From Enterobacteria phage ID11, in sequence record KX266300: a stretch of 5,577 bases of DNA. One strand, written 5' to 3'. Below the pieces are notes generated by a model, which did no database searches, had not been told where the DNA came from, and was given only the letters and a program-made list of their open reading frames with translations. Positions 2,600 to 5,577 of the stretch are shown piece after piece; the first letter of the stretch is position 1, and the number at the start of each line of letters is the position of its first letter. Position numbers and translations under genes: made by a program.

Positions 2600-3883
2600 A
2601 TGTCTAACGTTCAAGCTTCTGCGGACCGTGTACCTCATGACTTATCTCACCTTGTCTTTGAGGCTGGTAAAATCGGTCGCCTCAAAACTATCTCTTGGAC
2701 GCCTGTTGTTGCTGGTGACTCTTTCGAGTGTGATATGGTTGGCGCTATTCGCCTTTCCCCTCTTCGTCGCGGCCTCGCTGTTGACTCACGTGTTGACGTC
2801 TTTTCTTTCTACATTCCACACCGTCATATCTACGGTCAGCAATGGATTGACTTTATGAAGGATGGCATTAATGCCGCTCCCCTTCCTCCTGTCACATGCT
2901 CTTCTGGTTGGGATGCTGCCGCTTATCTCGGTACTATTCCGTCCTCTAACCTTAAAGTGCCTAAATTCTTACATCAGGGCTATCTGAATATTTATAATAA
3001 CTACTTCAAACCGCCTTGGTCTGATGACTTAACTTACGCTAACCCATCCAATATGCCTTCTGAGGATTATAAATGGGGCGTACGTGTCGCTAACCTGAAA
3101 TCTATCTGGACTGCGCCACTTCCACCGGATACCCGTACATCTGAAAACATGACTACTGGTACATCCACTATTGACATTATGGGCCTTCAAGCCGCATACG
3201 CTAAATTACATACGGAACAGGAACGTGATTACTTCATGACCCGTTACCGTGACATTATGAAAGAGTTCGGCGGTCATACATCCTATGATGGTGACAATCG
3301 TCCTCTTCTGCTCATGCGTTCTGAGTTCTGGGCCTCTGGCTATGACGTAGACGGTACTGACCAATCTTCTCTCGGTCAATTCTCTGGTCGCGTTCAGCAG
3401 ACCTTTAATCACAAAGTGCCACGCTTCTATGTTCCTGAGCATGGCGTAATTATGACTCTGGCGGTTACTCGCTTCCCGCCTACTCATGAAATGGAAATGC
3501 ACTATCTTGTAGGCAAGGAAAATTTAACCTATACCGATATTGCTTGTGACCCTGCACTGATGGCCAACCTGCCACCGCGTGAAGTGTCCTTAAAAGAATT
3601 CTTCCACTCATCACCCGATTCTGCTAAATTCAAAATCGCTGAGGGCCAATGGTATCGTACACAGCCTGACCGTGTCGCTTTCCCATATAATGCTCTGGAT
3701 GGATTCCCGTTCTACTCTGCTCTCCCGTCCACGAAACTAAAAGACCGTGTACTGGTTAACACTGATAACTACGATGAAATCTTCCAGTCTATGCAGCTTG
3801 CACACTGGAATATGCAAACTAAATTTAACATTAACGTTTATCGTCACATGCCTACGACTCGTGACTCAATCATGACCTCGTAA
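2600..3883 (+). CDS. F: Major capsid protein F, 427 aa
   Basis: Translation from MSNVQASADRVPHDLSHL... aligns with phiX174 F throughout (for example GDSFE, LRLSPLRRGLA, YLNIYNNYFK, IWTAPLPP, IDIMGLQAAYA, DGTDQSSLGQFSGRVQQT, LPTTRDSIMTS). SD AAGGA at 2588-2592 lies 7 nt before ATG 2600. The track ORF start at 2561 is an upstream extension. Confidence 0.95.
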   Translation: MSNVQASADRVPHDLSHLVFEAGKIGRLKTISWTPVVAGDSFECDMVGAIRLSPLRRGLAVDSRVDVFSFYIPHRHIYGQQWIDFMKDGINAAPLPPVTCSSGWDAAAYLGTIPSSNLKVPKFLHQGYLNIYNNYFKPPWSDDLTYANPSNMPSEDYKWGVRVANLKSIWTAPLPPDTRTSENMTTGTSTIDIMGLQAAYAKLHTEQERDYFMTRYRDIMKEFGGHTSYDGDNRPLLLMRSEFWASGYDVDGTDQSSLGQFSGRVQQTFNHKVPRFYVPEHGVIMTLAVTRFPPTHEMEMHYLVGKENLTYTDIACDPALMANLPPREVSLKEFFHSSPDSAKFKIAEGQWYRTQPDRVAFPYNALDGFPFYSALPSTKLKDRVLVNTDNYDEIFQSMQLAHWNMQTKFNINVYRHMPTTRDSIMTS

Positions 3884-3892
3884 CGCAACAAA

Positions 3893-3998
3893 GGCCGCCC
3901 CTCTACTGGTCAGATACCTGCCCAATGTGGGGCGGACCGTGCCTACGGAGACACCCGAGTCTCCGATACATGGACGGCGAAAGCCGCCGTCCCTACTG
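3893..3998 (+). other. Complementary (-) strand origin, G4-type: three stem-loops plus a CTG primase start site in the F-G intergenic region
   Basis: The 136-nt F-G spacer (3884-4019) holds three hairpins readable from the sequence: 3893-3901/3929-3938 (9 bp with one bulged A, 27-nt loop), 3946-3952/3959-3965 (7 bp, 6-nt loop) and 3972-3979/3985-3992 (8 bp, 5-nt loop). CTG at 3996-3998 follows the last hairpin. The reverse complement of 3972-3997 is AGUAGGGACGGCGGCUUUCGCCGUCC, which matches my recollection of the G4 primer RNA 5' end. Confidence 0.7.
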
Positions 3999-4019
3999 CA
4001 AAGCCAAAAGGACTAACAT

Positions 4020-4553
4020 ATGTTCCAGAAATTCATTTCTAAGCACAATGCTCCAATTAACTCTACTCAGCTTGCTGCTACTAAAACCCCGGCTGTCACG
4101 GCACCTGTTTTATCTGTGCCTGACTTAAGCCGCTCTACTATTCAAATCAATGCAACAACCACAGCCGTTACAACTCATTCAGGCTTGTGCCATGTTGTTC
4201 GCATTGATGAAACAAACCCAACAAATCATCACGCTCTATCTATTGCAGGTTCGTTGTCAAACGTCCCTGCTGATATGATTGCTTTTGCCATTCGTTTTGA
4301 GGTCGCTGATGGCGTCGTTCCTACTGCCGTTCCGGCCTTATACGACGTCTATCCAATCGAAACCTTCAATAACGGCAAAGCAATCTCATTTAAAGATGCT
4401 GTTACCATCGACTCACATCCCCGCACCGTCGGTAACGACGTTTATGCGGGAATTATGCTCTGGTCTAACGCTTGGACCGCCTCTACTATCTCTGGCGTCC
4501 TCTCTGTTAATCAGGTAAACCGTGAAGCAACCGTCCTTCAACCTCTGAAATAA
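4020..4553 (+). CDS. G: Major spike protein G, 177 aa
   Basis: N-terminus [10 protein letters not shown] and C-terminus ...[18 protein letters not shown] match phiX174 G (MFQTFISRHN ... LQPLK). The interior is divergent but collinear, as expected for the host-range spike. SD AAGGA at 4008-4012 lies 7 nt before the ATG. Confidence 0.92.
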
Positions 4554-4563
4554 GGATTATCCT

Positions 4564-5577
4564 ATGTTTGGCGCTATCGCTGGCGGTATCGCCTCCGCAC
4601 TTGCCGGAGGCCTTACGGGTAAATTATTTGGCGGCGGTCAGTCCGCCAACTCTACCGGAATCCAAGGCAACGTCCTTGCTTCCGACAACAATGTTGTAGG
4701 TGCTAATGATGCTGGTATTAAATCTGCTATTCAGGGCTCTACTGTCCCTAACTCTCAGGAAGCTGCCCCCTCTGCTATCTCTGGTATCCTTGCCGACACT
4801 GGCAAGCATGCGCTCTCGTCTCTTACCAATGCTGGTACAAATAAACTTATGGAAGCTGTCGGCCTTTCTAAATCTGCCTCTGACAAGGGCAAAGACACAA
4901 AAGACTATCTCGCCTCCGCATTCCCCGAGCTCAACCCATGGGAACGTGCTGGCGCTGGTGCTTCTGGTGCAGGCATGCAAGATGCTGGTTTCCAAAATCA
5001 GAAAGAGCTAACCAAAATGCAGCTTGACAACCAAAAGGAAATCGCTAAGATGCAAAACGAAACTCAGAAGGAAATCGCTGGGCTTCAATCTGTTACATCA
5101 CGCGAAAATACTAAGGATACTGTCTATGCTCAAAATGAAATGCTCGCGTATAACCAAAAAGAGTCTATGTCACGCGTTGGCGCTATTCTCGAAAACACAA
5201 GCCTCACCAAACAACAACAAACTTCTGAAATTATGCGGCAAATGCTTACTCAGGCTCAAACCGCAGGTCAATATTTTACAAATGACCAAATCAAGGAGCT
5301 TACGAGAAAAGTTGGTGCTGATATTGATGCTGTTCGCGCTAACACTGCACGCACCTATGTAGAAACCGACCGCTCAAAACAGGAAGTACAAAACTCCCGT
5401 TATGCCTCTTCTCAGGTAGGCAAAACCGCTAAGGACGTGTCCAATGCAGTTACTGATACAGCTAGTTCTATTGTTGATTATTTTCGTGGTGTTGATCAAA
5501 AAGTGGCAGACGTTTACAACAACTATTTCAAAGATGGCAAATCGAAAGGAATAGAATCCAATCACCGCTCCAAATAA
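4564..5577 (+). CDS. H: Minor spike / DNA pilot protein H, 337 aa
   Basis: Gly-rich hydrophobic N-terminus [16 protein letters not shown], a central region [27 protein letters not shown] and the segment [22 protein letters not shown] are near-identical to phiX174 H. SD AAGGA at 4552-4556 lies 7 nt before the ATG. The stop is the last codon of the window. Confidence 0.93.

Follow-up and report, generated by a model that had tools for sequence, protein, structure and literature searches.

Introduction

The origin of complementary-strand synthesis in phage G4 is the classic model for the recognition of a start site by primase on SSB-coated DNA. It was described by Fiddes, Barrell and Godson (1978), Bouche, Rowen and Kornberg (1978), and Sun and Godson (1993, 1998), as cited in PMC6783573 and PMC13037366. 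According to the account of G4ori in PMC6783573, the primer is made with primase and SSB only, and three stem-loops, flanked by SSB-free regions of ~30 nt, are followed on their 3' side by a 5'-CTG-3' whose thymine is the start of synthesis. In the same account, the full-length G4 primer measures 28 nt; C first appears in it at position 9, and an 18-nt stretch without adenine follows. A "mini-hairpin," GCGAAAGC, is placed in G4 hairpin I at the primer site in PMC13037366; the mode of primase recognition is still debated, and the rearrangement of the mini-hairpin put forward in that paper is a model. The G4 origin is still used as a biochemical tool, in the form of M13Gori templates (PMC6783573).

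Primase-dependent minus-strand origins of phages alpha3, St-1, and phiK were reported by Sims, Capon and Dressler in 1979 (cited in PMC13037366), and the differing location of the origin in the G4 and alpha3 clades has been in the literature since that year. The primosome assembly site of phiX174 performs the same task, starting complementary-strand synthesis on SSB-coated viral DNA, and is also a DNA hairpin. However, primase can act at it only after PriA, PriB, PriC, DnaT, and DnaB/DnaC, whereas SSB and primase suffice for the G4 type. Shlomai and Kornberg are said to have placed this PriA primosome assembly site in the F-G spacer of phiX174 in 1980.

Here, we analyze the spacer between genes F and G of Enterobacteria phage ID11, which is almost certainly a G4-type origin of complementary (minus) strand synthesis. 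This is the function that the initial annotation of the DNA had proposed, and it is supported both by near-identity to G4 and by the fit to the published details of G4ori. The feature is already known: it is a textbook element, and ID11 is a strain of the very species that served to define it.

Results and Discussion

The window analyzed (the whole stretch of DNA under record KX266300, 5577 bases) is a complete microvirus genome. A megablast comparison with ID11 record AY751298 gives 100% coverage and 99.9% identity, and the window is also matched to hundreds of laboratory isolates of ID11, which is classified in the species Gequatrovirus G4. Only three positions differ from AY751298, 2361 (G/C), 2578 (T/C), and 2615 (G/A), and none of them is in the F-G spacer; one each lies in the D/E overlap, in the J-F spacer, and near the start of F. 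The annotation of AY751298 contains eleven genes, all on the + strand, with protein F ending at 3883 and protein G starting at 4020, which leaves a 136-nt spacer at 3884–4019. The non-coding gaps of the genome measure 58, 1, 32, 45, 136, and 10 nt. The F-G spacer is therefore the longest, with the next at 58 nt, in agreement with its earlier description as the sole long non-coding stretch. Annotation, gap length, and the covariance-model match presented below together assign the complementary-strand origin (oric) and the gene G ribosome-binding site to the + strand of this spacer. The gene G Shine-Dalgarno sequence, which we interpret as AAGGA at 4008–4012 (+), 7 nt upstream of the ATG at 4020, is inside the spacer but outside the origin structure. 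A mechanically called ORF of 67 aa (3925–4128, +) opens with an ATG within hairpin III and extends, out of frame, into gene G. In the origins of the alpha3 group, the region homologous to its start reads GTGTAGGG, with GTG for ATG and an in-frame TAG two codons on; this ORF is therefore very unlikely to be a gene.

The closest counterpart of the element is the F-G spacer of G4, which lies in the same position, has the same length of 136 nt, and carries the same base as ID11 at 134 of 136 positions. The similarity to the G4 origin region that had been predicted for ID11 is thus found, and with short flanks included, it amounts to 98.9% identity over 186 nt. The two phages are identical in hairpins I and III, the GCGAAAGC loop region, the CTG, the predicted primer, and the 3' flank. 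The only differences are two positions of hairpin II, 3952 and 3955. C at the first of these in ID11, versus T in G4, gives a C-G pair in the former and a T.G wobble in the latter, while the difference at 3955 falls in the loop. These two substitutions are not expected to cause a functional difference. The most perfect version of hairpin II is that of ID11. The sequence and structural features that characterize the G4 oric are all present in ID11: a non-coding spacer on the + strand of a Bullavirinae genome with homology to G4, a stem-loop I tipped by GCGAAAGC with stem-loops II and III 5' of it, and a CTG 3' of the stem-loops that predicts a primer of up to 28 nt starting with AG. Because the spacer is near-identical to that of G4, where priming has been shown, we infer that ID11 behaves as G4 does. 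Our literature search found no priming or primer-mapping experiment on ID11, and a search for open-access mutational analyses of the G4 oric returned citing papers only.

When folded as single-stranded DNA, positions 3884–4019 form three hairpins with a total of -31.0 kcal/mol (z = -5.12), located at 3893–3938, 3946–3965, and 3972–3992. The three-hairpin structure drawn in the initial annotation is thus reproduced. All three lie on the + strand. Stem-loop III (3893–3938) is long and imperfect, with an outer stem formed by GGCCGCCCC and GGGGCGGACC; it folds at -11.6 kcal/mol alone and shows compensatory pairs. Stem-loop II (3946–3965) has a 7-bp stem, CGGAGAC-ACCCGA-GTCTCCG, folds at -6.1 kcal/mol, and is specific to the G4 clade and variable. 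Stem-loop I (3972–3992), GGACGGCG-AAAGC-CGCCGTCC, has an 8-bp stem, folds at -10.1 kcal/mol, and would be copied into the primer. Its tip, read from the sequence, is the unusually stable mini-hairpin motif GCGAAAGC (3977–3984, +). None of 200 dinucleotide shuffles of the spacer folds as stably. Across 1395 sliding 136-nt segments of the genome, the mean is -12.1 kcal/mol (sd 4.7), and no segment outside the spacer is as stable. The GC content of the spacer is 59.6% versus 45.9% for the genome, and the fold is still an outlier after regression on GC, with a residual of -10.6 kcal/mol (sd 3.7).

The minus strand of the spacer folds about equally well (z = -4.9), so folding does not tell which strand is functional. 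We assign function to the + strand because it carries all genes and because the mRNA-sense strand is the one packaged by microviruses. The second most stable 136-nt fold in the genome, at 4565–4700 (-28.6 kcal/mol), is at the start of gene H; the surrounding stretch 4554–4710 folds at -29.1 kcal/mol (z = -3.1) and is GC-rich coding sequence at the 5' end of that gene. The gene H fold was considered as an origin remnant and rejected, as it gives no match to the origin model.

The start site is a CTG at 3996–3998 (+), 3 nt past the stem of hairpin I, which bears out its earlier placement just after the last stem. This trinucleotide, read from the sequence and invariant in 22 aligned origins, would be the primase initiation site, with the first base of the primer opposite T3997. 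A CTG by itself is uninformative: 138 occur on the + strand of the genome, three of them within the spacer. The total of 138 compares with ~87 expected under uniform composition, and codon usage, such as CTG for Leu, likely contributes to the excess. The hexamer CTACTG that holds the start site (3993–3998) recurs in hairpin III at 3903–3908; this second copy is not kept in the alpha3 group, which has ACTCCCGG there.

The primer predicted for ID11 in the initial annotation, the reverse complement of 3972–3997, is AGTAGGGACGGCGGCTTTCGCCGTCC; its sequence is exact, and as RNA it forms, as claimed, a hairpin, with 8 bp at -16.6 kcal/mol (z = -4.4). Reading leftwards from T3997 gives AGUAGGGA, followed by CGGCGGCUUUCGCCGUCC, which is 18 nt long and free of A, and then AU, in exact fit to the published G4 primer. 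The template for the predicted primer, 5'-pppAGUAGGGACGGCGGCUUUCGCCGUCC(AU)-3' (26–28 nt, obtained as the reverse complement), would accordingly span 3970–3997, read leftwards for a product of minus-strand sense. For ID11, we infer both the sequence and the extent of this primer from the DNA. Immediately 3' of the start site, the conserved flank CTGCAAAGCC (3996–4005, +) corresponds to CTGC[A/T]AAGCC, which is invariant in both clades, and it probably belongs to the SSB-free region to which primase binds.

The conservation of the element was examined in an alignment of 22 origins, of which eight belong to the G4 clade and 14, St-1 and phiK included, to the alpha3 clade; pairing was evaluated over the 21 distinct sequences. 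The F-G spacer is common to the eight G4-clade phages, with a mean column identity of 98%. In alpha3 (X60322), in contrast, the F-G spacer is just 33 nt, and it is the 135-nt G-H spacer at 4960–5094 that is homologous to the F-G spacer of ID11. A BLAST comparison of the alpha3 G-H spacer with the F-G spacer of ID52 gives 81% identity (E 3e-23). The origins of alpha3, St-1, and phiK share with ID11 hairpins I and III, a CTG at the same offset, and CTGC[A/T]AAGCC, and their length of ~135 nt is similar. They differ in their position, at the G-H rather than the F-G junction, in the loop of hairpin I, which is GTTA, GCAA, or GTAA rather than GAAA, and in one stem pair, A-T rather than C-G.

Pairs were counted against the ID11 structure. 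All cells of hairpin I (100%) are paired in the 21 distinct sequences, and there is one compensatory change, C-G in the G4 clade versus A-T in the alpha3 clade. In hairpin III, 86% of cells are paired in the outer stem, where columns 13-51 and 14-50 of the alignment form compensatory pairs. These two double changes are independent and occurred within the alpha3 clade, from C-G to T-A in four sequences and from G-C to A-T in two. Hairpin II, however, is paired in only 60% of cells across both clades. It is not formed in the alpha3 group in the 22-origin alignment, and within the G4 clade, it has two mismatches (alignment columns 64-84) in ID12, ID52, and vB_1081. Hairpin II is thus clade-specific and already weakened in some G4-like phages. 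Because it is not conserved outside the G4 clade, the phrase "three hairpins" overstates what the origin requires.

Covariation was tested with 500 shuffles, a control that ignores the relatedness of the sequences. Neither the covariation score nor the count of cells with double changes is reached in any of the 500 shuffles, and pairing drops by half when the partner columns are slid. Because the control ignores relatedness, we give more weight to the individual compensatory events, most of which are single events on a tree. Outside the stems, the CTG and the C[A/T]AAGCC that follows are invariant in the 22 origins. The loop of hairpin I (3979–3983; columns 98-101) occurs as GAAA, GAA, GTA, GTTA, GCAA, and GTAA and always has the form G...A. 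This closure is consistent with a sheared G-A mini-hairpin, as predicted in the literature.

Variation among close relatives was also assessed. The F-G spacers of ID11 and ID52 share 94.9% identity, whereas third codon positions of F and G are ~79% identical. The E-J spacer (2445–2476) and the J-F spacer (2555–2599) are 41% and 67% identical in the same comparison; J in ID52 directly adjoins D and E or overlaps them. The identity of ID11 with alpha3 is 76% for the origin core, as compared to 66% for gene F, 51% for gene G, and 59% for gene H. A non-coding element that is better conserved than its neighboring genes points to function, and these values indicate that the spacer is under purifying selection. 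A 100-passage evolution experiment yielded 338 endpoint isolates of ID11 (PMC4958007). All ID11 records, these 338 isolates included, match 3860–4045 at ≥99% identity. In the sampled isolates KX266321, KX266410, and KX266500, the sole variation in 3860–4045 is an A to G change at 3864 in gene F. The change at 3864 is the "F421" background, and the sampled changes leave the origin untouched.

The presence of an element of ~120 nt at F-G in one clade and G-H in the other, with a core that is 76% identical between the clades as compared to 51–66% for the flanking genes, raises the idea that the origin is a movable cassette. It may have been transferred or relocated between lineages after their divergence, rather than having been held by strong purifying selection alone, although we regard this history as rather unlikely. 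If it were true, hairpin II would have been added in one lineage without being essential, and ID12, ID52, and vB_1081 would be in the course of losing it.

A covariance model (R1) was built from the 22 origins and used for wider searches. It gives one match per G4-type or alpha3-type genome, at 142–152 bits, and matches the window at 3891–4021 with 145.6 bits. Weak minus-strand matches at 3817–3940 (18 bits) and 3972–3992 (9 bits) were considered as a second element and rejected, as they reflect the self-complementarity of the inverted repeats. A strict pattern scan of viral contigs returned 15 of them, all cultured G4-like or alpha3-like genomes except for three uncultivated alpha3-like contigs, which carry the element upstream of gene H. 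The element was thus seen in these two clades only, and the scan revealed no new lineage. Looser scans of metagenome and genome collections returned at least 120 and 83 loci, respectively, mostly in GC-rich bacteria. These loci were rejected as origins: among the 160 that were listed and screened with the covariance model, none exceeds ~18 bits, as compared to 142–152 bits for the genuine matches. They are best regarded as chance matches because the pattern is too short for databases that large. A search of Rfam at the gathering threshold over the whole window gave 0 matches, as expected for an element that acts at the DNA level.

Plasmid G sites, or ssi, of the R1, R100, and F-type plasmids are described as being primed by DnaG alone on SSB-coated DNA. 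They would share this working mode with the ID11 origin but have no detectable sequence similarity to it. When 72,556 plasmid records were searched for G4-type G sites, the matches were at chance level only (E ≥ 0.4). The placement of the ID11 origin and plasmid G sites in one sequence family is not supported by these sequence comparisons.

The hairpins could also act mainly on the polycistronic mRNA, where they might terminate transcription or stabilize the 3' end after F, or else regulate the translation of gene G. Both neighbors of the spacer are highly expressed, the spacer is on the transcribed strand with the Shine-Dalgarno sequence of gene G inside it, and its GC-rich hairpins would form in mRNA too. 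Weak terminators have been described in phiX174 after genes J, F, G, and H. However, a scan for promoters and terminators on the + strand of the ID11 spacer found nothing, and we therefore reject termination as the main function. No terminator-like site was detected on the + strand from 3700 to 4200, and a T run comes after none of the three hairpins; the sequence next to hairpin I is CTACTGCAAAGCC. A terminator would also leave the invariant CTG and its CTGC[A/T]AAGCC flank unexplained. Moreover, the alpha3 group carries the element at a different gene junction, G-H, and the near-identical G4 sequence is an established primase origin. A main role in the mRNA is therefore very improbable, although the hairpins may have a secondary, minor role at the mRNA level.

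Even less credible is a phiX174-type primosome assembly site, in which PriA would recognize a fork-like hairpin and DnaB would be loaded to allow priming at many sites. This reading draws on the fact that phiX174 has the same gene order and uses a PriA-dependent site, and that its F-G spacer also folds strongly. The hairpin of phiX174 is AT-rich, however, and different in form, and its F-G spacer is 41% identical to that of ID11 over a heavily gapped alignment, about the level of chance. The covariance model finds nothing in the phiX174 genome (best 5.4 bits, E 3.3). The ID11 spacer thus lacks the similarity to the phiX174 F-G hairpin that a site of that type would display, and the phiX174 site has neither sequence nor structural similarity to the ID11 origin. 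In addition, the near-identical G4 origin needs SSB and primase only. The distinction from phiX174 and its PriA site drawn in the initial annotation is borne out by these comparisons.

Structure arising by chance or from composition, with no specific function, would be favored by the elevated GC content of the spacer, but it can be dismissed with near certainty, given the departure from dinucleotide shuffles (z = -5.1), the residual that remains after adjustment for GC, the excess conservation over neighboring third codon positions, and the compensatory changes.

Conclusions

The G4-type origin suggests the following mechanism for ID11, which combines the observed structure, statistics, G4 near-identity, and conservation with protein requirements and a start site taken from the G4 literature. 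The circular viral + strand would enter the cell and be coated by host SSB. The F-G stem-loops would stay folded and would exclude and phase SSB, leaving short SSB-free stretches on both sides. E. coli DnaG would then bind directly, without PriA, DnaB, or RNA polymerase. The RNA primer would be begun opposite T3997 and copied leftwards through stem-loop I, giving a hairpinned product of ~26–28 nt. Extension of this primer around the circle by the DNA polymerase III holoenzyme would yield the double-stranded replicative form.

The comparison of 22 origins separates the parts of the element that selection appears to have preserved, namely hairpins I and III, the G...A closure of hairpin I, the CTG, and CAAAGCC, from hairpin II, which has not been preserved. 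This outcome is in line with previous comparative studies and is not fundamentally new. For ID11 itself, a phage widely used in experimental evolution, the intact origin only confirms G4-like replication.
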